Shown here one piece after another: positions 10,680-53,050 of a stretch of 64,000 nt of DNA. Origin of the DNA: Chitinophagaceae bacterium. Its GTDB lineage: Bacteria > Bacteroidota > Bacteroidia > Chitinophagales > Chitinophagaceae. The first letter of the stretch is position 1. Every line of letters begins with the position of its first letter. The stretch lies in NCBI GenBank assembly GCA_016703625.1, contig JADJBP010000001.1, positions 837,129 to 901,128 of the forward strand, given 5' to 3'. Made by a program: the position numbers and the translations under genes. Below the pieces are notes generated by a model. The model searched no databases and was not told where the DNA came from. It worked only from the letters and a program-made list of their open reading frames with translations.

Positions 10680-11108
10680 ATGAAACAGGTAAAAGAAGGT
10701 GATGTTGTAAAAGTACATTACACAGGTAAGTTGGTTAATGGTGAGCAGTTTGATTCTTCAACCGGCAGGGAGCCGCTGGAGTTTACGGTTGGAGCCGGGC
10801 AAATGATCAAAGGATTTGATGATGCGATGCCGGGAATGAGTTTGGGTGAAAAGAAAACGATCAATATTGCAGCCGAAAATGCATATGGTGAAAGAAGTGA
10901 AGAGGCGATCATTGAGTTCCCGAAAGAAAATGTACCTGCCGATATGGTACTGGAACCCGGAATGCCGCTGACCTTAAGCAACCAGGCAGGACAGCCCGTA
11001 CCCGTAATTGTGGTGGAAGTAAAAGAAGAAGTGATCATTTTGGATGCCAATCATTTCCTGGCAGGACAGGAATTGATATTTGATATTGAACTGGTAGAGA
11101 TTTTGTGA
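10680..11108 (+). CDS. FKBP-type peptidyl-prolyl cis-trans isomerase (SlyD-like)
   Basis: MKQVKEGDVVKVHYTGKLVNGEQFDSS...LEFTVGAGQMIKGFDDAMPGMSLGEKK has the FKBP fold pattern, with an inserted flap region. ATG 10680 is preferred over the upstream TTG at 10632. Confidence 0.8.
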   Translation: MKQVKEGDVVKVHYTGKLVNGEQFDSSTGREPLEFTVGAGQMIKGFDDAMPGMSLGEKKTINIAAENAYGERSEEAIIEFPKENVPADMVLEPGMPLTLSNQAGQPVPVIVVEVKEEVIILDANHFLAGQELIFDIELVEIL

Positions 11109-11190
11109 GTCGAGAGTCGAGAGTCAAGAGTCAGGAGTCAGGAGTTGGGAGTTTGAGCAATTTTAAACTCCCAATTCCTAATTCCTAATT
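11107..11190. repeat. Tandem heptamer array (GAGTCNN x7), then a 10-bp hairpin and a CCTAATT repeat
   Basis: gagtcga gagtcga gagtcaa gagtcag gagtcag gagttgg gagtttg (11107..11155). The stem ttgggagttt / aaactcccaa follows, then ttcctaattcctaatt. It sits between convergent genes and overlaps both stop codons. Confidence 0.85.
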
Positions 11191-20326: not shown

Positions 20327-20382
20327 TGGTTAATATGTTAATACGTTAATCCGTTGATACGTTAATTGGTTTATTGGTTTTT
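20327..20382. repeat. Tandem octamer array (NNGTTAAT x7) filling the exbB-exbD spacer
   Basis: tggttaat atgttaat acgttaat ccgttgat acgttaat tggtttat tggttttt. Confidence 0.85.
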
Positions 20383-20407
20383 TGGTAAGACAAGTAGAAA
20401 TTATAAT

Positions 20408-27754: not shown

Positions 27755-27780
27755 ACGGATTAACTAATAAACGGATTAAC
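27755..27780. repeat. ACGGATTAAC x2, inverted counterpart of array 28971..29058
   Basis: acggattaac taataa acggattaac, immediately 3' of the gcdH stop (27781). Confidence 0.7.
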
Positions 27781-28965
27781 CTATTTAAACGCATTAATCC
27801 CCGTCACATCCATTCCCGTGATCAGCAAATGAATATCATGCGTACCCTCATAAGTAATTACACTTTCCAGGTTCATCATGTGACGCATTACCGGGTATTC
27901 GCCTGTAATGCCCATACCGCCCAGCATCTGGCGGGCATCCCTGCAAATATTTGTTGCCACTTCACAGGCATTCCGCTTGGCCATACTCACCTGCTGTGGT
28001 GTTACTTTACCTTCGTTCATCAACACACCAAGCCGCCAGTTCATTAACTGGGCCTTTGTAATTTCGGTTACCATCTCTGCCAGTTTTTTCTGCTGCAGCT
28101 GAAAACTGCCGATAGGTTTTCCAAACTGGATCCTTTCTTTACTGTAGTTTAATGCTGTATCATAACAATCCATAGCAGCGCCAATTGCACCCCAGGCAAT
28201 TCCATATCTTGCCTTGGTTAAACATCCCAATGGCCCTTTCAATCCTTTTACATTGGGTAATATATTTTCTTTGGGAATTTTTACATTGTCGAATACCAGC
28301 TCCCCGGTTGCACTGGCACGCAGGCTCCATTTACCATGTGTGGTTGGGGTACTGAAACCTTCCATGCCCCTTTCCACGATCACGCCTTTTATATCTCCGG
28401 TTTCATCTTTAGCCCAAACCACGGCCACCTGTGCAAAAGGCGCATTGCTGATCCACATTTTTGCACCATTCAGTAAAACATGGTCACCGGCGTCTTTAAT
28501 AGTTGTTAGCATTCCGCTGGGGTCGCTGCCATGATTGGGTTCGGTTAAACCAAAACAACCAAGCCACTCACCGCTGGCCAGTTTTGGTAAATATTTGTTG
28601 CGTTGTTCCTCATTTCCATATTGATAAATGGGAAACATCACCAGGCTGCCCTGCACGCTGGCTGTTGAACGTACACCACTATCGCCACGTTCCAGTTCCT
28701 GCATCATCAAACCATAACTGATATAATCCAGTCCGCCGCCGCCATATTGTTCCGGTACGGTAGGACCAAAACAGCCCAGGTCGCCCAGCTGTTTGATGAT
28801 CTGTTGCGGAAATTCGGCCCGCTGGGCATAATCTTCTATAATGGGGGAGATCTCTTTTTTTACATAATTGCGTACAGATTCACGAATGAGCTTATGTTCA
28901 TCCGTCAGCAGTTCATCAACATTAAAATAATCGGGAGATTGAAAATTGTCTGTTTTAGCAGCCAT
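27781..28965 (-). CDS. gcdH: Glutaryl-CoA dehydrogenase
   Basis: ...LLTDEHKLIRESVRNY..., ELERGDSGVRSTASVQGSLVMFPIYQYGNEEQRNKYLPKLASGEWLGCFGLTEPNHGSDPSGM tracks the GCDH signature closely, as compared from memory with the human enzyme. Confidence 0.9.
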   Translation of the reverse strand: MAAKTDNFQSPDYFNVDELLTDEHKLIRESVRNYVKKEISPIIEDYAQRAEFPQQIIKQLGDLGCFGPTVPEQYGGGGLDYISYGLMMQELERGDSGVRSTASVQGSLVMFPIYQYGNEEQRNKYLPKLASGEWLGCFGLTEPNHGSDPSGMLTTIKDAGDHVLLNGAKMWISNAPFAQVAVVWAKDETGDIKGVIVERGMEGFSTPTTHGKWSLRASATGELVFDNVKIPKENILPNVKGLKGPLGCLTKARYGIAWGAIGAAMDCYDTALNYSKERIQFGKPIGSFQLQQKKLAEMVTEITKAQLMNWRLGVLMNEGKVTPQQVSMAKRNACEVATNICRDARQMLGGMGITGEYPVMRHMMNLESVITYEGTHDIHLLITGMDVTGINAFK

Positions 28966-28970
28966 TGTAA

Positions 28971-29058
28971 TGTTTATTGGTTAATTCGTTAATTAGTTAA
29001 TCTGTTAATCCGTTAATCTGTTAATGTTAATCCGTTAATCCGTTAAGTGGTTAATACG
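28971..29058. repeat. Tandem GTTAATNN array (about 10 units) in the gcdH 5' leader
   Basis: ggttaatt cgttaatt agttaatc tgttaatc cgttaatc tgttaat gttaatc cgttaatc cgttaagt ggttaata. Confidence 0.85.
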
Positions 29059-35903: not shown

Positions 35904-36021
35904 GGGCTAAAGCCCGGTTTTTTTTTATTTTTATCCCTGGCCTGAAGGCCAGGGCAATTCAGAAGGCCGGGGCAATTCAGGCTGGAGATTGTGTACAATA
36001 AATTTAATAGGCTTTAGCCCT
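35904..36021. repeat. Nested hairpins and direct repeats downstream of kmo
   Basis: gggctaaagccc (35904) is complementary to ggctttagccc (36011). The inner hairpin is ccctggcc tgaa ggccaggg. There is a direct repeat aaggccNgggcaattcag x2. Confidence 0.6.
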
Positions 36022-37363
36022 TTATTTTTTCCAAGATCATTTTTTCTATTTCTTCATCGGCCCACCTGTTCTCAATGCCGGGCAAAGCCATGATCTCCTG
36101 CATAATGGTTTCCTGTTTTTGTCCGTTTACCAATGCCTGGCTATACCTGATATGTGGACTGAATGTTACCTGTGCATAAGCCGGGATCCATTTATCGGGA
36201 TATTTTTTGCTGAATGCCGCTTCAATTTTTTTCTGCAGTAAAAAACGGGGATCAGCAACCTTATCACGCATTTCTACAAAATTATTCAGTGCCAGGTCGC
36301 AGATGGCATCGCCGTCGGGTTTTCTTAACTGCTGGTATTCGGCCAGGATCTTTGTCCAGTTCTCATCATGTTTTCCGATCAGGCTGTTTAAAACTGAGCA
36401 GTCTTCAAAGCCACAGTTCATACCCTGCCCAAAAAAAGGAACCATGGCATGTGCTGCATCACCGATCAGCGCAAATTTATCTTCCCGTATCCAGGGAAAA
36501 CATTTTACGGTTACCAGGGAAGATGTGGGGTTATTGAAAAAATCTGATTCCAGGGTTGGCATCAAAGGCAAAGCATCTGAAAAAGTCTTTTCAAAAAAAG
36601 TTTTTACTTTTTCTTTTGTATCCAGTGCGGCAAAAGAAACTTCGCCATCAAAGGGAAAGAAAAGTGTGCAGGTAAAACTGCCATCCATATTGGGCAGGGC
36701 TATCATCATGTAATTACCCCTTGGCCAGATGTGCAAAGCATGCTTCTCCAGTAAAAATGATCCGTTCTCTCCCGCAGGTATGTTTAGTTCTTTATAGCCA
36801 AAGTCGATAAAATACTGGCTGTACTGGAAACGGTCCTGTTGCAACTGGTGTGTAAGCCTGGCAGCAGAATAAGCGCCATCGCTGCCGAAAATAAGTTGGC
36901 CGTTATTTGTTGTTCGTTGCCCGGTAGCTACATGCTCAAATAGGATATCATTTTTATTCCAGTCAATGTGTTCACATTTTTGATTGAAATTAATTTCAAC
37001 GCCATGCTGTTCGGCAAGGTCCATCAACTTACAATTTAGTTCGCCGCGTGAAACTGAATTAATGTACTGCCCTTCTTTGCCATAGGGCTGATACGCAGTG
37101 GTTCCATCGGCATTGTGCATATACCTGCCATGCATGGGAATACATATCTTCCGGATATCATCCATCAGCCCAACTTCTTCCAGCGCTTTGATACCACGAT
37201 CACTGAGTGCAAGGTTAATGGAGCGCCCGGCAACCATATCTGTTTTACGCATATCTGAACGCCGTTCAAAGATTTTTACAGGATACCCGCGTTTGGATAA
37301 ATAGATGGACAGCAATGAGCCAACCAGCCCGGCACCGATAATTATTGTTTGCTTCTTTTCCAT
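36014..37363 (-). CDS. kmo: Kynurenine 3-monooxygenase
   Basis: IIIGAGLVGSLLSIYLSKRG (FAD binding), GRSINLALSDRGIKALEEVGL and LIGDAAHAMVPFFGQGMNCGFED. Confidence 0.9.
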   Translation of the reverse strand: MEKKQTIIIGAGLVGSLLSIYLSKRGYPVKIFERRSDMRKTDMVAGRSINLALSDRGIKALEEVGLMDDIRKICIPMHGRYMHNADGTTAYQPYGKEGQYINSVSRGELNCKLMDLAEQHGVEINFNQKCEHIDWNKNDILFEHVATGQRTTNNGQLIFGSDGAYSAARLTHQLQQDRFQYSQYFIDFGYKELNIPAGENGSFLLEKHALHIWPRGNYMMIALPNMDGSFTCTLFFPFDGEVSFAALDTKEKVKTFFEKTFSDALPLMPTLESDFFNNPTSSLVTVKCFPWIREDKFALIGDAAHAMVPFFGQGMNCGFEDCSVLNSLIGKHDENWTKILAEYQQLRKPDGDAICDLALNNFVEMRDKVADPRFLLQKKIEAAFSKKYPDKWIPAYAQVTFSPHIRYSQALVNGQKQETIMQEIMALPGIENRWADEEIEKMILEKIKG

Positions 37364-38637
37364 TAATCTTTATTTAAGATCAGTTTTACAATTTCTCCAA
37401 ACTTCCAGATATCTTCAAATGTATTGTATAAGGGTACCGGTGCCACCCTGATCACATTCGGTTCCCGCCAGTCGGCCAGCACCCCGTTTTGTTTTAAGGT
37501 ATCAAAGACTTCCTTACCTTTTTCCAGCATCAGCATGGATACCTGGCAACCTTTATTTTCTTTAGGGGTAATGATCGTGATCTTTTTTTCTGCCGAACCG
37601 GCATTGATCTCTTCAATTATAAAAAATAAATAATCGCTCAGCATTTTTCCTTTGGCAATCAAATTTTCAATACCGGCTTCTTCAAAATTATCAAGCGAAG
37701 CTTTATGGGCTGCCATGCTTAAAATGGGAGCGTTGCTCAATTGCCATCCCTCGGCTGTGGCAATGGGGTTAAAACCTTTTTCCATTTTGAAACGGGTTTC
37801 TTTATCATGTCCCCACCATCCGGCTAACCGGGGTAAAGCAGTATTGGTGATATGTCTTTGATGAATGAAAGCACCGGCAACACCGCCCGGCCCGCTGTTC
37901 AGGTATTTATAACTGCACCAGCAGGCAAAATCAACATCCCAATCATGTAAATGCAGTTCAATATTTCCTGCAGCATGGGCCAGGTCAAACCCGCAATAAG
38001 CGCCGGCTTCATGTGCTGCTTTGGTGATCGCATCCATGTCAAATACCTGGCCGTTGTAATAATTTACGCCGCTGAAAATGACCACCGCAGTTTCATCAGC
38101 ATGTTGTTTGATAGTTGACAGTATATCTTCAGTCCTGATCACGGGTTCACCATCCCGGGGTGCAACTTCAATAATTACCCGGCCAGGATCAAGCCCATGA
38201 AATTTTGCCTGTGTTTCAAAAGCATACTGGTCAGATGGAAATGCTTTTGCTTCGCAAATGATCTTATAACGTTCTTTTGTGGGTTGATAAAAACTGGCCA
38301 TCAGCAAATGCAGGTTCACGGTAAGCTGGTTCATCACCACGATCTCTTCGGGTAAAGCACCAACGATCTTTGTAAGCAGTTGTGGAAACATCTCATGGTA
38401 ACTGAACCAGGGTTGCCTGGCATGAAAATGTCCTTCCACGCCAAAGCTGGCCCAGTCTTCCAGTTCATTCAGCACATAATCCTGCGTGGTTTTGGGTTGC
38501 AGGCCAAGAGAGTTGCCGGTGAAGTAGATGCATTCATTCCCGTTGATGATGGGGATATAAAATTTATCCCTGAAATGATTTAAAGCATCCTGTTCATCTA
38601 ATTGTTTTGCAAAAGCGAAACTATTCTCAAATATCAT
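37363..38637 (-). CDS. kynU: Kynureninase
   Basis: YFTGNSLGLQPK, FSGVNYYNGQ and CWCSYKYLNSGPGGVAG (PLP-lysine region). Its stop overlaps the kmo ATG (TAATG). Confidence 0.9.
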   Translation of the reverse strand: MIFENSFAFAKQLDEQDALNHFRDKFYIPIINGNECIYFTGNSLGLQPKTTQDYVLNELEDWASFGVEGHFHARQPWFSYHEMFPQLLTKIVGALPEEIVVMNQLTVNLHLLMASFYQPTKERYKIICEAKAFPSDQYAFETQAKFHGLDPGRVIIEVAPRDGEPVIRTEDILSTIKQHADETAVVIFSGVNYYNGQVFDMDAITKAAHEAGAYCGFDLAHAAGNIELHLHDWDVDFACWCSYKYLNSGPGGVAGAFIHQRHITNTALPRLAGWWGHDKETRFKMEKGFNPIATAEGWQLSNAPILSMAAHKASLDNFEEAGIENLIAKGKMLSDYLFFIIEEINAGSAEKKITIITPKENKGCQVSMLMLEKGKEVFDTLKQNGVLADWREPNVIRVAPVPLYNTFEDIWKFGEIVKLILNKD

Positions 38638-38648
38638 TCATGTTGTTT

Positions 38649-39052
38649 TTAATCAATCGTAGCGACCACTTTTAATTCAATGGCTATGGGTGTTGGCAAA
38701 CTTTTTACTTCAACTGTAGTTCGGCAGGCCTGTACATCGGTAAAATATTCACCATAGATCTTATTGTAAACCGGGAAATCCTTTTTCATATGTGTTAAAA
38801 AAACCGTTACATCCACGATCTTATCCCAACTGCTGCCGCTTGCTTCCAGCACAGCTTTCACGTTAGCGAAACATTGGTGACATTCAGCCTCAATATCATA
38901 CTTAACAATATTTCCTTCAGCATCCTGTTCCAATCCAGGGATGGAATTGTCTTTTGCGCTCCTGCTGCCAATGCCGGAAAGAAATAATAAATTCCCAACA
39001 CGCCTTGCATGAGGGTAAGCCCTAATGGTTTTGCAGCAGCATCAGTATGTAT
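38649..39052 (-). pseudogene. ridA: RidA/YjgF-family protein (candidate 2-aminomuconate deaminase); no own start codon seen and the frame is broken at a C3 run
   Basis: IHTDAAAKPLG (frame of ORF 38858..39499), then, after adding one base at 39020..39022, AYPHARRVGNLLFLSGIGSRSAKDNSIPGLEQDAEGNIVKYDIEAE...TVFL...RTTVEV..LP. This joins ORF 38649..38933. Confidence 0.7.
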
Positions 39053-39101
39053 AGTTTCGTTTCTCGTTTCTCGATTGTTCGTTTCTCGTTTCTCGTTTGT
39101 T
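39052..39101. repeat. CGTTTCT heptamer array (left arm flanking the four-helix-bundle gene)
   Basis: cgtttct cgtttct cgattgtt cgtttct cgtttct cgtttgtt. On the minus strand it is translated as NEKRETNNRETRNE. Confidence 0.85.
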
Positions 39102-39499
39102 GAGACTCTGTTCTGAAATTTAGTCCCTGTTTTTTCAGATGTATTCAAATATTTAATTAATGCGCCAATCTTTTTACCTGTTTTGTCTGCCAATTCGTTA
39201 AGCTCTTCAAAAATTTCCTTTGAAAAGTGATTTCTGTTTACACATCTTATTATTTGTGATTGAAGTTCGGATGCCGAGGCCCTGGCAATACTTAAAAATT
39301 GAATGAATTCCAATCTTCCCGCTCTGCCAAATCCTTCAGCTATATTGTCAGGAATTGAACCTGCTGATTTATTTATCTGGTCTTTTAATGCATAGTCTCT
39401 GGAGAGGGTACCGCTACTCAGTTGTTCAAATATCTTTTTCTCCAGTTCATTTGCCAACTGCCATACTTCCAGATCAGTAAATTTTTTTATTGTTGCCAT
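39102..39499 (-). CDS. Four-helix-bundle protein (23S rRNA intervening-sequence / Avd-like family)
   Basis: MATIKKFTDLEVWQLANELEKKIF...YALKDQINKSAGSIPDNIAEGFGRAGRLEFIQFLSIARASASELQSQII fits the TIGR02436/PF05635 pattern as I remember it. There is no stop codon before the repeat array; the ORF runs on to 38858. Confidence 0.8.
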
Positions 39500-39520
39500 A
39501 AATTAGTAAATCATAAATTT

Positions 39521-39566
39521 AAAAAAACGAGAAACAACAAAACGTATAACGAGAAACCAGAAACGG
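39521..39566. repeat. Inverted AGAAACG array (right arm flanking the four-helix-bundle gene)
   Basis: aaaaaaacgagaaacaacaaaacgtataacgagaaaccagaaacgg. Its reverse complement aligns with 39052..39101 (for example 16 of 19 positions over cgtttctNgtttctcgNt). Confidence 0.8.
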
Positions 39567-39571
39567 TGTTT

Positions 39572-41027
39572 TTAATATTGTATACAAACATTTTTCGCTT
39601 CTGTAAAAAAACGCAATGCTTCCCATCCGCCTTCTCTTCCTACACCGCTGTTCTTCATACCGCCAAACGGTGTACGCAGGTCCCTCACCAGCCAACAGTT
39701 CACCCAAACAATACCACATTCAATTTTTGCTGCCATGCGGTTTGCTTTGCTGATATCCTGTGTCCAGATGGTAGCAGCCAGGCCATAATTTGTTGCATTG
39801 GCCAACGCGATCGCTTCTTCTTCTGTGTCAAAAGGCTGTATGGTAACTACCGGGCCAAAAATTTCTTCCTGGTTGGTTTTGCAGTTTTGATCCAGGCCTT
39901 CAATGATGGTGGGTTCTACAAAATAACCACCTGCACACCTGCCGGTTAACTGTACTGCATGCCCACCACATAAAACAGTTCCGCCTTCATCTTTGGCAAC
40001 AGCTATACAATTCATTATTTTTTCAAAATGTACTTTGCTTACAAGGGCGCCCTGTTTTGAGTTTTCATCAAGCGGGTCACCAACGGTTAGTTTTTTTGCA
40101 ATGGGAATAAAATGTTTTTTAAAATTTTCATACGCTGTTCTTTCCAGCAATATCCTGCTTCCACATAAACATATTTGTCCCTGGTTACCGAATGAAGACC
40201 TTATCGTTTCTGTGAGCATTTTTTCCCAGTTACAATCATTAAAAATAATGTTGGGGTTTTTACCGCCCAGTTCCAGGGATAATTTTTTAAACATAGGGGC
40301 AGCAATGCCGGCTATGCGTTCGCCTGCTTTTGTACTGCCGGTAAAAGAAATTGCTTTTATGTCGGGGTGTTTTACAATGGCCTCGCCGCAATGTTGTCCT
40401 ACGCCATGTATAATATTCAGTACCCCATCCGGCAAACCGGCTTCCTTACATATTTTTCCCAGCAGGAATGCTGTAACAGGGGTTATTTCAGATGGTTTTG
40501 CAATTACACAATTGCCGGCGGCCAATGCCGGTGCAATTTTCCAGGTGAATAAATACAAAGGCAGGTTCCAGGGAGAGATGCAGCCCACAATACCGATGGG
40601 TTGCCGCAGGGTATAGTTCACTGCTTTGTCTTCCATTTGATGGCTCTCGTTTGCAAAATGCATGATGCCTGTTGCAAAAAACCTGAAGTTGGATGCGGCC
40701 CTGGGAATATCAACCACCTTCTTTAACCATAAGGGTTTGCCGTTATCATTGGTCTCTGCCAGTGCCAGCGCTTCCCCGTTTTCATCAATGAGTTCAGCAA
40801 TTTTATTGAGGATGATGAATCTTTTTCAACCGGCAGAACACTCCACGCAGGGAATGCTTTTTTGCGGCTTTCACGGCAATGTCGATGTCTTTGGCATTGC
40901 TGTCGGGGATCTGGCCGTAAACTTCACCGGTAGCCGGGTTTACATTGTCAATAAAATTACCGCTGAGCGGACCGATAAAATTTCCGCCGATAAAATTTTC
41001 AAGGTGATATGGAATATCCAGTTGCAT
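39572..41027 (-). pseudogene. NAD-dependent aldehyde dehydrogenase (context: 2-aminomuconate-6-semialdehyde dehydrogenase), frame broken in a T6 run
   Basis: ORF 40803..41027 (MQLDIPYHLENFIGGNF...AVKAAKK) and ORF 39572..40717 (..ELGGKNPNIIF..NQGQICLCGSR..). Adding one base at 40858..40863 gives AAKKAFPAWSVLPVEKRFIILNKIAELIDENGEALALAETNDNGKPLWLKKVVDIPRAASNF. Confidence 0.8.
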
Positions 41028-41114: not shown

Positions 41115-41672
41115 ATGTCAATTGCAGCACCTTTTAATTTAAAAAAATGGATCGATGATAACCGCAGCCTGCTGAAACCCCCGGTAGGCAATCAATGTAT
41201 TTATAAAGACGCGGAAAATTTTATAGTGATGATCGTAGGCGGCCCCAACTCCCGTAAAGATTATCATTTTAATGAAACAGAGGAATTGTATTACCAGGTA
41301 GAAGGGGATATTGTTTTAAAGATCATTGAGAATGGTGCACCACGGGATATCCCGATCAATGAAGGGGATATTTTCCTGCTACCGCCAAGAACACCGCATT
41401 CACCACAGCGTGGCCCCGGCACGGTAGGACTGGTGATAGAAAAGGTAAGGGAAACCGAAGAGGACGGATTTTTGTGGTACTGCGAAAACTGCGGCAATAA
41501 ATTGTATGAAGAGTATAAAGTGATCAATGATATTGTAACACAACTCCCGCCGGTGATGGAAGGGTTTTATGCCGATGAACATAAACGTACCTGCAGTAAA
41601 TGCGGTTCGGTGATGGCGCCGCCGGTAAAAGAAGGGTTAATCCGTAAAAACGTTAATCCGTATAAACGTTAA
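41115..41672 (+). CDS. 3-hydroxyanthranilate 3,4-dioxygenase
   Basis: IVGGPNSRKDYHFNETEELYYQVEGDIVLKI...FLLPPRTPHSPQR (cupin), plus a C-terminal rubredoxin-like site CENCGNKL...CSKCGSVM. Confidence 0.9.
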   Translation: MSIAAPFNLKKWIDDNRSLLKPPVGNQCIYKDAENFIVMIVGGPNSRKDYHFNETEELYYQVEGDIVLKIIENGAPRDIPINEGDIFLLPPRTPHSPQRGPGTVGLVIEKVRETEEDGFLWYCENCGNKLYEEYKVINDIVTQLPPVMEGFYADEHKRTCSKCGSVMAPPVKEGLIRKNVNPYKR

Positions 41673-41732
41673 TTCGTATTGACACGAAAACGGATTAACT
41701 AATTAACCAGTTAACGTATTAACCAATTAACT
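41634..41732. repeat. GTTAATCCGT array with inverted ACGGATTAAC / NNATTAAC array; overlaps the 3' end of the dioxygenase CDS
   Basis: gttaatccgt aaaaac gttaatccgt ataaac gttaattcgt ... acggattaac taattaac cagttaac gtattaac caattaac. The 10-bp stem gttaatccgt/acggattaac is perfect. Confidence 0.85.
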
Positions 41733-41744
41733 ATTCTATTCTCC

Positions 41745-42743
41745 ATGAAGATCGATATTCACACCCACATCATGCCCGCGATCATGCCCAACTGGGTACA
41801 TAAATTCGGCTATGGTGAATTTATACACCTGGAACACCGCAACTGCAAGGCCTGCATGATGAAGGGGGATAAAGTTTTCCGAGAGGTGGATGAAAATTGT
41901 TTTGATGCAGGCATCCGTTTAAAGGAAATGGATGAAACCGATGTTACCATACAGGTGCTTTCCACCATACCAGTTTTATTTAACTACTGGGCAGCAGCAA
42001 AAGACGGTTATGAAACCTCCCGCTTTTTTAATGACCATATCACTGATACGGTTTTAAAGAACCCAAAACGTTTTATAGGAATTGGTACGGTTCCAATGCA
42101 GGATATTGACTTGGCCATTAAGGAAATGGAACGATGTGTTGAGGACCTGGACATGCCGGGGCTTGAAATTGGCAGTAACATAAATGGTATTAATTTAAGC
42201 GATGAACAGTTCTTTCCCTTTTACGAAGCGGCTGAAAAGCTTGGCTGTGCATTGTTTGTGCATCCCTGGGAAATGATGGGGGAGCAGCAGATGCAGAAAT
42301 ACTGGCTGCCCTGGCTGGTAGGGATGCCTGGCGAAACTTCCCGTGCCATCTGTTCCATGATCTTTGGCGGGGTATTCGAAAAGTTCCCGAAACTGCGGGT
42401 TGCATTTGCACATGGCGGTGGTTCGTTTCCGTTGACCATCGGAAGGATCGAACATGGGTTTAATGTGCGTCCCGACCTGGTGGCTATTGATAACCCGGTA
42501 AACCCCAGGGATCATATCGGTAAATTCTGGATCGATAGCCTGGTACATGATGAAAAAGCATTGAAATACATCATTGATGTGATGGGGGAGGATACGATCT
42601 GCCTGGGAAGTGATTATCCTTTTCCGTTAGGCGAACATCATCCCGGTAAACTGATCGAAGGGATGAATTTCACGAAACAGCTTTCCAATAAATTATTGTA
42701 TAAAAATGCGCATGACTGGCTGAATATAAAAACTACTCATTGA
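41745..42743 (+). CDS. 2-amino-3-carboxymuconate-6-semialdehyde decarboxylase (amidohydrolase_2)
   Basis: MKIDIHTHIMP..., ..FVHPWEMMG.., AFAHGGGSFP and LGSDYPFPLGE. Confidence 0.9.
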   Translation: MKIDIHTHIMPAIMPNWVHKFGYGEFIHLEHRNCKACMMKGDKVFREVDENCFDAGIRLKEMDETDVTIQVLSTIPVLFNYWAAAKDGYETSRFFNDHITDTVLKNPKRFIGIGTVPMQDIDLAIKEMERCVEDLDMPGLEIGSNINGINLSDEQFFPFYEAAEKLGCALFVHPWEMMGEQQMQKYWLPWLVGMPGETSRAICSMIFGGVFEKFPKLRVAFAHGGGSFPLTIGRIEHGFNVRPDLVAIDNPVNPRDHIGKFWIDSLVHDEKALKYIIDVMGEDTICLGSDYPFPLGEHHPGKLIEGMNFTKQLSNKLLYKNAHDWLNIKTTH

Positions 42744-44599: not shown

Positions 44600-44656
44600 G
44601 TTTGTGGTTTGTGGTTTGTTGTTGGTGGTTTAACCACAAACTAAAAACTGCAAACC
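44600..44656. repeat. GTTTGTG heptamer array with inverted AACCACAAAC partner
   Basis: gtttgtg gtttgtg gtttgtt gttggtg gttt aaccacaaac taaaaactgcaaacc, between the scpB start and the atpG stop. Confidence 0.8.
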
Positions 44657-52905: not shown

Positions 52906-52929
52906 ATACTATTTGTTTTTGTAATTAAA

Positions 52930-53050
52930 GTCATTGGTCATTGAGTTATTAAGTCATTGGTCATTAAGTCATTGGTCATTAAGTTATTAAGTCAATGGTT
53001 AAATTCTTTTCAAAAAGGATTTATTATAATGACTAATGACTTAATGACTT
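52930..53050. repeat. GTCATTR(A) 7-8-mer array with inverted AATGACT array
   Basis: gtcattg gtcattga gttattaa gtcattg gtcattaa gtcattg gtcattaa gttattaa gtcaatg gttaa ... ataatgac taatgac ttaatgac t. It abuts the nhaA stop. Confidence 0.85.

Follow-up and report, generated by a model that had tools for sequence, protein, structure and literature searches.

The question raised by this locus is why the gene of a four-helix-bundle (4HB) protein of the PF05635/TIGR02436 family lies in a kynurenine-pathway operon, bracketed by two arrays of short repeats that are complementary to each other. The locus belongs to a stretch of 64,000 nt from a Chitinophagaceae bacterium (GenBank assembly GCA_016703625.1, contig JADJBP010000001.1, positions 837,129 to 901,128, forward strand), the whole of which is called the window here. 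The spacer between the genes for an aldehyde dehydrogenase (ALDH) and a RidA-family protein is taken up entirely by a cassette consisting of a 5' array, an A/T-rich spacer, the 4HB open reading frame (ORF) and the complementary 3' array. We suggest that this is a selfish, replaceable cassette of the type known as the rRNA intervening sequence (IVS), found here outside rRNA and now placed within a host translation unit, an explanation that we consider reasonably probable.

The most striking fact, and what is new here, is that a linker encoded by the array joins the cassette ORF to RidA in a conserved in-frame fusion. The 4HB ORF, stop-free, crosses the 3' array (…KFQNRVSTNEKRETNNRETRNE) into TIHTDAAAKPLG, the N-terminus of RidA, and the 3' arm translated in the 4HB frame reads as the linker STNEKRETNNRETRNE. 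The earlier note on this DNA treated the array as a mere flank of the gene, which has to be corrected. In the window the first 12 RidA codons (TIHTDAAAKPLG) are in the 4HB frame and the remaining RidA (AYPHARRVGNLLFLSG…) continues in another frame, after a 1-nt deletion relative to the orthologues at the CCC run 39020-39022 (plus strand; TTAGG-GCTTAC). The RidA score against TIGR00004 is under the cut-off because the window ORF is truncated by this frameshift, and the undisrupted part matches PF01042 (E 5.6e-22). A 1-nt correction would give a fusion of ~282 aa, resembling those of the loci L003, L009 and 44 others. The ALDH gene is likewise split by a 1-nt frameshift relative to the orthologues, a base being missing from a homopolymer (T5 run) inside 40817-40831. 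Both frameshifts are probably homopolymer under-calls of sequencing in a long-read assembly.

The fusion was detected in many relatives. Twelve genome loci carry the 4HB ORF in frame and stop-free, via the 3' array, into an ATG-less RidA (products of 250-289 aa), and with the metagenome loci added there are 46 in-frame, stop-free fusions at the ALDH-RidA site in which the RidA ATG is lost. Their linkers have 18 different lengths (18-231 nt), every one a multiple of 3 despite the 7-nt repeat unit. In eight further loci (L016, L103, L108, L109, L116, L118, L120, L126) the 4HB stop codon abuts or overlaps an ATG (e.g. TGAATG, TAAATG) upstream of the array; the array is there an N-terminal extension of RidA and the arm is still translated. 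The 3' arm is thus coding in the 54 scorable ALDH-RidA loci with a 4HB of the window clade, and it is untranslated only in L015, whose 4HB is distant. Among protein clusters at 90% identity, PF05635 and PF01042 occur together in all 120 listed (the best of 1969 hits; 271-317 aa), and the ~282-aa fusion is named "four helix bundle protein" at NCBI and "2-aminomuconate deaminase" at JGI.

Both parts of the fusion appear to be maintained. Modelled with AlphaFold2 on 52 fusion sequences, the orthologous fusion P0121 has two confident domains, a helical bundle (1-120) and a RidA fold (148-283), with a disordered linker between them (124-146; predicted confidence, pLDDT, under 50); the bundle has helices at 11-27, 36-59, 62-88 and 94-120 and a short one at 30-34, with block pLDDT of 74-96. 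The linker peptides are enriched in N, T, E, K, Q and R. The proportion of nonsynonymous differences (pN) is well below that of synonymous ones (pS) in the 4HB (0.32 vs 0.71) and in RidA (0.12 vs 0.75); synonymous sites are saturated, so these are pN/pS values and not a proper dN/dS. The values point to purifying constraint on both the 4HB and the RidA parts. At the contig end of L002 (about 2440-2493) the fusion ORF is truncated and the translations include …GRASCRERVLWYV… and …RVGKECCGTCRS, a stretch resembling what we take to be a recurrent assembly artefact.

The two arms of the window cassette are 44 nt each and 75% complementary. Tandem Repeats Finder reports a 22-nt unit built of TCGTTTC heptamers at 39056-39101 (95% matches) and AAACGAG with period 7 at 39525-39565, and the 5' arm begins 6 nt past the ALDH stop codon. 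In the folded minus-strand RNA of 39030-39590 (561 nt) the arms are paired in both the minimum-free-energy and the centroid structure (z -3.7; 0/100 shuffles as good), and the arms joined via a GAAA loop give -42.9 kcal/mol vs -21.2 +/- 3.2 for shuffles (z -6.9). The earlier note had described a 4HB gene between ALDH and RidA, flanked by inverted heptamer arrays able to form a stem of ~45 nt, and the profile matches, the repeat finding and the folding all bear this out. The counterpart in relatives of the A/T-rich spacer before the 4HB gene is TATAATTTG, a mere resemblance to the Bacteroidota -7 box TAnnTTTG; its reading as a promoter was dropped for the inexact match.

The stem itself could have been the selected feature, as a processing site of the kind that the earlier note suggested: a ~44-bp duplex cut by RNase III in the polycistronic mRNA would break the coupling between ALDH and the genes downstream, or determine their stoichiometry. 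The predicted pairing agrees with this, as do the excision of the homologous Coxiella IVS by RNase III (PMC4990558) and the presence of ORF-less array hairpins in many spacers within and between operons, as RNA elements would be. Against it, the 3' arm is translated at this site in the 54 window-clade loci that could be scored. Moreover, because in the 46 fusion loci RidA has no start codon but the 4HB ATG, a cut there would produce a 4HB message lacking a stop and a RidA that could not be translated. Stem mismatches are 82 G-U vs 138 A-C, with no sense-strand excess of G-U, and a Dysgonomonas cassette is antisense to the operon around it. mRNA processing is therefore unlikely as the selected role at the ALDH-RidA site, as far as these sequence comparisons indicate, and we consider the whole explanation improbable.

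The bracket is a general feature of 4HB genes in this group of genomes. An iterative hidden Markov model (HMM) search detected 108 4HB ORFs in 934 kb, 99 of them with enough flank to be scored for local complementarity between 130 nt upstream and 170 nt downstream; RNAduplex on the 130 x 170-nt flanks discriminated poorly (shuffles at about -44 kcal/mol) and was replaced by this score. The median was 20 for the 99 genes vs 9 for 685 displaced controls (99th percentile 14.6, maximum 16); 87% of the 4HB genes are above the controls' 95th percentile and 77% above the 99th. The Mann-Whitney p of 1e-51 overstates independence, the set being mostly from Chitinophagaceae with many orthologues at one site, though their arms differ. 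The arms of the window cassette score 23 in a slightly different geometry. The arm pairs have a median aligned length of 41 nt and 81% Watson-Crick pairs; period 7 was found in 39 of 40 periodic arms, and there are at least 25 distinct consensus units, mostly nnnGTTT, the two arms of a pair always being mutually complementary. The 5' arms are rich in T (49%) and G (26%), the 3' arms in A (51%) and C (26%).

Within the kynurenine loci every other 4HB gene has its own inverted arrays with its own unit. The HAO-ACMSD spacer contains a 4HB cassette in L025, L007, L030 and L150; its arms are GGTTGAA and complement in L025. In L007 and L030 GAAAGTTGA and GGATAATGGATA, each with its complement, lie around a 4HB of a distant subfamily (confirmed by TIGR02436). 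The arms are TTTACCATT and complement in the cassettes between RidA and kynureninase (KYNU) of L043 and L020, and GTTAATTGG and complement in those upstream of ALDH in L019 and L163. The bracket is also found in non-kynurenine contexts, the 3' arm usually stopping no more than about 12 nt from the next ATG. Bracketed 4HB genes, each from a single locus, lie antisense inside an ABC-transporter operon of Dysgonomonas (score 26), between the type I restriction-modification genes hsdS and hsdM in an operon of Thermonema rossianum (L179, 1501-1869; score 33) and between the genes for biotin carboxylase and biotin carboxyl carrier protein in Prevotellaceae (score 23.5). In total the bracket spans several 4HB subfamilies, many sites and four Bacteroidota families. 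L179 additionally has direct GGAGAATG arrays after the 4HB stop codon. The position of the 4HB stop beside the downstream ATG was tried as a general coupling and rejected, since only about half of the unfused elements have it (gaps of -4 to 137 nt).

The cassette is patchily present at the ALDH-RidA site. The ALDH-protein scan of species-representative genomes gave 80 loci, in which the spacer contains a 4HB in the window, L001-L003, L009, L013-L017, L020, L022-L024, L026, L031 and L039, and is empty (5-130 nt) in L004-L008, L011, L012, L018, L019, L021, L025, L027, L029, L032, L035, L040 and others. The empty loci L004-L008 are among the nearest relatives of the window (ALDH 89-91% identical). 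In the ALDH neighbour-joining tree the occupied loci are dispersed in the Chitinophagaceae clade, empty ones are nested at no fewer than 8 places (at least 8), and the outgroups are empty. In a comparison of the occupied L090 with the empty L011, homology ends at the ALDH stop and resumes about five codons into RidA. The earlier note's proposal that the gene and its two inverted arrays form one discrete unit is strengthened by these results: empty sites exist in close relatives, the arms pair on folding and other 4HB genes carry flanking inverted arrays.

The occupied loci differ in what they carry. 4HB identity hardly tracks the identity of the host ALDH (Spearman 0.22), and sister hosts with ALDH 91-94% identical (L017/L024, L039/L023, L107/L139) have 4HBs only 50-58% identical and different arm units; together these two observations point to repeated replacement of the resident cassette at the ALDH-RidA site. 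This bears on a second explanation, that the fusion has been domesticated, the 4HB being a functional N-terminal module of 2-aminomuconate deaminase (e.g. for oligomerisation or regulation) and the arrays remnants of its arrival. The fusion ORF kept in at least 120 protein clusters with its frame strictly held, the constraint on both domains and their predicted folds speak for such a module. The swapping of the 4HB between sister hosts for lineages 50-58% identical speaks against it, and so do the close relatives that manage with a free RidA and no 4HB, the same 4HB clade unfused in other spacers of the operon, and the persisting complementarity of the arms, which a pure linker would not need. 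The symmetry would be awkward too, RidA proteins being trimers whereas the solved relatives of the 4HB have five chains per entry. We regard domestication as quite improbable, somewhat more so than RNA processing.

The 'empty' ALDH-RidA and RidA-KYNU spacers of L004, L005, L011, L018, L025 and L035 contain other lineage-specific, multi-copy hairpin families, of the GCAGAGAA type, the GGGCTAAAGCCC…GCCCGGCC type and the CCCCCTCT type, often in two spacers per genome.

Hairpins of the same kind also exist without an ORF. A sliding inverted-repeat scan of the 934 kb detected 196 strong hairpins, 80 of which enclose a 4HB domain (loops of 356-696 nt) and 116 do not; a strict period-array detector was too insensitive and overlooked the window's own hairpins. 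One such hairpin fills the HAO-ACMSD spacer of the window: its 5' array encodes the last 12 HAO codons (…GLIRKNVNPYKR, then stop) and its 3' arm stops 5 nt short of the ACMSD ATG. In L003, L009, L014 and L017 the ORF-less hairpin of the HAO-ACMSD spacer has CGTTTCT units, as in the 4HB cassette of the same genome, and in L031 the unit family of the cassette is likewise present in a second spacer. The ends of the 153-nt ORF-less HAO-ACMSD element of L017 are identical to those of its 4HB cassette at 47/51 and 45/49 positions, including non-repeat bases (the ends were aligned separately, the global alignment of full and ORF-less elements being uninformative). This would be expected of an element and its internally deleted copy, or of two copies homogenised by gene conversion.

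These data also bear on the possibility that there is no element, and that slippage-prone low-complexity arrays arose independently beside short AT-rich genes, their complementarity being a by-product of composition. Arrays do expand and contract freely, as in the L022 3' arm, and partnerless solo arrays exist in the window. Composition does not account for the flank pairs, 71% of which beat the 99th percentile of composition-preserving shuffles, nor for at least 25 different units, each with its complement on the opposite side; and the homology of the ORF-bearing and ORF-less elements of L017 reaches past the arrays into non-repetitive ends. This explanation is already disfavoured, and we consider it very improbable.

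Several observations concern the arrays themselves. The HAO-ACMSD spacer of L022 (347 nt) has a 3' arm of ~35 AACCAGC/AACCAGT units vs about five in the 5' arm; arms are thus able to grow very unequally. In L083, L031, L099/L100, L107, L112, L115, L117 and L139/L140 RidA lies between the A/C-rich 3' arm of the cassette and the G/T-rich arm of a downstream ORF-less hairpin in the RidA-KYNU spacer, which in L083, L031 and the others is of the cassette's own unit family, the elements standing in tandem. Solo GTTAATnC arrays (or the complement) with no nearby partner arm are present in the window at 20329-20386, 27755-27797 and 28972-29056, and the minus-strand gene 27781-28965 lies between two of them, with an A/C-array first and a G/T-array last.

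The spread of the cassette is illustrated by contigs encoding an identical 4HB protein, P0016, which is always at the ALDH-RidA site. A second 4HB cassette, in the adh_short-ALDH spacer, is present in two of these contigs (L163, L166) and absent from two others (L164, L165). In L163, compared with the near-isogenic L164, the element takes the place of a spacer of 57 nt together with ALDH codons 1 to 4, and no direct repeat was found flanking it that could be a target-site duplication. Downstream the two are 100% identical from ~32 nt beyond the junction, and the upstream flank is visibly more diverged (612/647 aligned positions identical overall). The cassette of L163 may have been imported by homologous recombination from a diverged donor. 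In L163 the ALDH ATG is removed, the arm contains an in-frame TAA and no obvious ALDH start was seen; in L019 an ATG in the ALDH frame, inside the 3' end of the 4HB, opens an ORF across the arm.

According to the selfish-cassette explanation, between related genomes the cassette would spread as an allele, via homologous recombination in the conserved flanking genes. The A/C-rich 3' arm would encode a hydrophilic, disordered peptide, and a new start upstream of the arm, or a fusion, would do no harm to the downstream ORF; insertions at gene starts would survive because the arm peptide permits this. The complementarity of the arms would be maintained by concerted evolution or by selection at the DNA level, and not for mRNA cleavage.

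Several points weigh against this explanation. The fusion ORF is broken in the window, where RidA and ALDH would be pseudogenes should the frameshifts prove genuine. Neither a transposase, a recombinase nor a target-site duplication was found, and movement to new sites is deduced from the distribution of the cassette. The patchy pattern could partly come from one old insertion followed by many losses, and the insertion boundaries are blurred, homology resuming only ~4-5 codons into the downstream gene, where conservation begins anyway. The surveyed 99 genes are in large part orthologous at one site, hence not independent. A 3' arm stop-free in all three frames was rejected as a general rule (19/71, equal to the 5' arms).

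The 4HB of the window is its sole PF05635/TIGR02436 member (PF05635: E 7.8e-30, 103.7 bits with a cut-off of 33.8, residues 9-112; TIGR02436: E 7.2e-27, 93.8 bits with a cut-off of 24). Other families gave no match to it at the thresholds used, and no nuclease or recombinase motif was recognised; the PHROGs search had no match and the PADLOC search gave a single weak hit (E 0.0036), none of whose matched stretches passed alone. The closest solved relatives are 2gsc and 2rld (PDB), with five chains per entry each. Avd and XCC0516 are homopentamers. Lacking any recognised motif of a nuclease or recombinase, mildly basic (pI about 9) and related to proteins with five chains per entry, the protein more likely binds the nucleic acid of the element than catalyses its movement.

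More tentatively, and with somewhat less confidence than we would need to favour it, we propose that the PF05635 IVS proteins, and perhaps GxxExxY proteins too, are the cargo of an undescribed class of hairpin-armed mini-cassettes. Such mini-cassettes would colonise transcribed hairpin tips and spacers, which in some phyla would be rRNA helices and in Bacteroidota the spacers of operons at gene starts. Their arms would be free in sequence and fixed in 7-nt periodicity, they would survive via read-through of the 3' arm by the host ORF, and the 4HB protein would bind or maintain its own array hairpin. In L057 (8268-8939) a GxxExxY gene (TIGR04256, E 1.5e-32) is placed within a 33-nt inverted repeat (…CACAGGGGCACAGAGGCACAGAG and complement), making GxxExxY a second small-ORF family carried in a hairpin loop.

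The surroundings of the cassette are those of a kynurenine-pathway cluster, with ALDH, 4HB, RidA, kynureninase and KMO on the minus strand and HAO and ACMSD divergent from them on the plus strand (Table 1). The gene order ALDH-RidA-KYNU-KMO is kept in 40+ loci, and hundreds of loci have a matching metabolic context around the cassette site. No Rfam family or tRNA was matched anywhere in the window by the Rfam and tRNA searches; the site, between two protein-coding genes, is therefore outside helix 25/45 of a 23S rRNA.

Table 1. Features of the cassette locus and array hairpins in the window (positions are those of the window)
Feature	Position	Strand	Basis or remark
KMO	36014-37363	-	
Kynureninase (KYNU)	37363-38637	-	
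RidA family (2-aminomuconate deaminase type), without own start codon	38649..39056	-	profile and orthologue comparison; homology onset 39056
Window ORF, 213 aa: 4HB, linker, RidA N-terminus and out-of-frame tail	38858..39499	-	translation
3' arm, A/C-rich heptamer array (AACGAGA units), complement of the 5' arm	39058..39101	-	repeat finding, complementarity, translation
4HB domain PF05635/TIGR02436, ATG 39499, no stop at its end	39122..39499	-	profile HMMs
A/T-rich spacer, 5' arm to ATG (TAAATTTATGATTTACTAATTT)	39500..39521	-	sequence
5' arm, array of heptamers that is G/T-rich on the coding strand (CCGTTTCTGGTTTCTCGTT...GTTTCTCGTTTTTT)	39522..39565	-	repeat finding, complementarity, folding
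ALDH (2-aminomuconate/2-hydroxymuconate semialdehyde dehydrogenase type)	39572..41027	-	gene upstream of the cassette; profile matches; stop codon 39572-39574
HAO	41115-41672	+	
ORF-less hairpin, GTTAATCC units and complement, filling the HAO-ACMSD spacer	41627..41740	+	-26.8 kcal/mol, z -3.7
ACMSD	41745-42743	+	
ORF-less array hairpin, GAGTCAA…GGAGTT with AACTCC	11107-11190		between convergent genes; z -5.9
ORF-less array hairpin, GTTTGTGG with CCACAAAC	44600-44650		between co-directional genes; z -3.1
ORF-less array hairpin, GTCATTG with TAATGAC	52928-53050		between convergent genes; z -7.9

To our knowledge, PF05635/TIGR02436 is among the most abundant small protein families without a known function outside diversity-generating retroelements. 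If the cassette is indeed self-contained, operon associations of PF05635 genes (e.g. with Cas) become insertions, and the rRNA IVSs are one case of a wider element that includes the 4HB genes of restriction-modification, cas and metabolic operons; the binding or maintenance of its own array hairpin by the protein would be the first testable biology of the family. The locus offers a plain case, from nature, of a metabolic enzyme to which a selfish ORF has been fused in frame, the fusion persisting in dozens of species. There are consequences for annotation as well, the fusion carrying different names at NCBI and JGI, and the finding opens simple experiments in cultivable Chitinophagaceae.

No prior description of the cassette was found in the literature searched by family names and accessions, in agreement with the earlier note, which had supposed it undescribed. 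The nearest precedent in operons is the 23S_rRNA_IVP genes inside cas operons, e.g. between cmr3 and cmr2 (Zhang, Doak and Ye 2014, PMC3936711), which are wedged between operon genes and resemble hsdS-4HB-hsdM in Thermonema; there the position was interpreted as a sign of functional association with Cas nucleases, and neither inverted arrays at the flanks nor cassette-like behaviour was noted. Avd of the diversity-generating retroelements shares the Pfam family (PMC10053308) and is a small, mildly basic four-helix bundle. No reverse transcriptase (RT) homologue is among the metabolic genes identified at 36.0-43.2 kb, where no RT-profile or template-repeat/variable-repeat (TR/VR) search was made.

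REPIN/RAYT systems and miniature inverted-repeat transposable elements (MITEs), such as the Correia elements of Neisseria, are likewise hairpin inverted repeats in intergenic spacers and inside transcription units. The sharing of terminal repeats by gene-bearing and gene-less copies (L017), the lineage-specific repeat families and the presence/absence polymorphism (L163 vs L164, L090 vs L011, the ALDH tree) are traits in common with the REPIN/RAYT and MITE types. Unlike in REPIN/RAYT, the cargo is not a HUH/RAYT transposase and has no known catalytic motif, and unlike in REPINs and MITEs, the arms are variable heptamer arrays and not one conserved palindrome, with no target-site duplication seen.

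The STRRs (short tandemly repeated repetitive DNA) of cyanobacteria are tandem 7-nt intergenic units, which also lengthen a helix of RNase P RNA. We know of no described link between STRR and PF05635 genes. They have 7-nt arrays on both sides of a hairpin, as here, in a different phylum. PMC2858038 cites Mazel 1990 and Vioque 1997 for such heptanucleotide repeats in heterocystous cyanobacteria.

The closest likeness is to the 23S rRNA IVS of Coxiella burnetii and Leptospira, and to the 16S/23S insertions of the Candidate Phyla Radiation (CPR). The Coxiella IVS is a 428-nt, horizontally acquired selfish element with an S23p ORF and is excised by RNase III (PMC4990558), and 23S_rRNA_IVP ORFs are scattered over insertion sites in CPR 16S and 23S rRNA genes (PMC11270868). 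As in our cassette, a PF05635/S23p protein is encoded inside, the ORF lies between inverted repeats that form a long stem, and the size is similar (428 nt in Coxiella vs about 430-510 nt here). The 23S rRNA IVS sits in helix 25/45 of the rRNA, whereas the cassette sits in an mRNA, in an operon spacer, where excision by RNase III would be harmful. Its arms, unlike those of the rRNA IVS, are tandem 7-nt arrays of many sequences, and while the Coxiella ORF is apparently untranslated and decaying, the ORF here appears to be under purifying selection and is joined in translation to a host enzyme.

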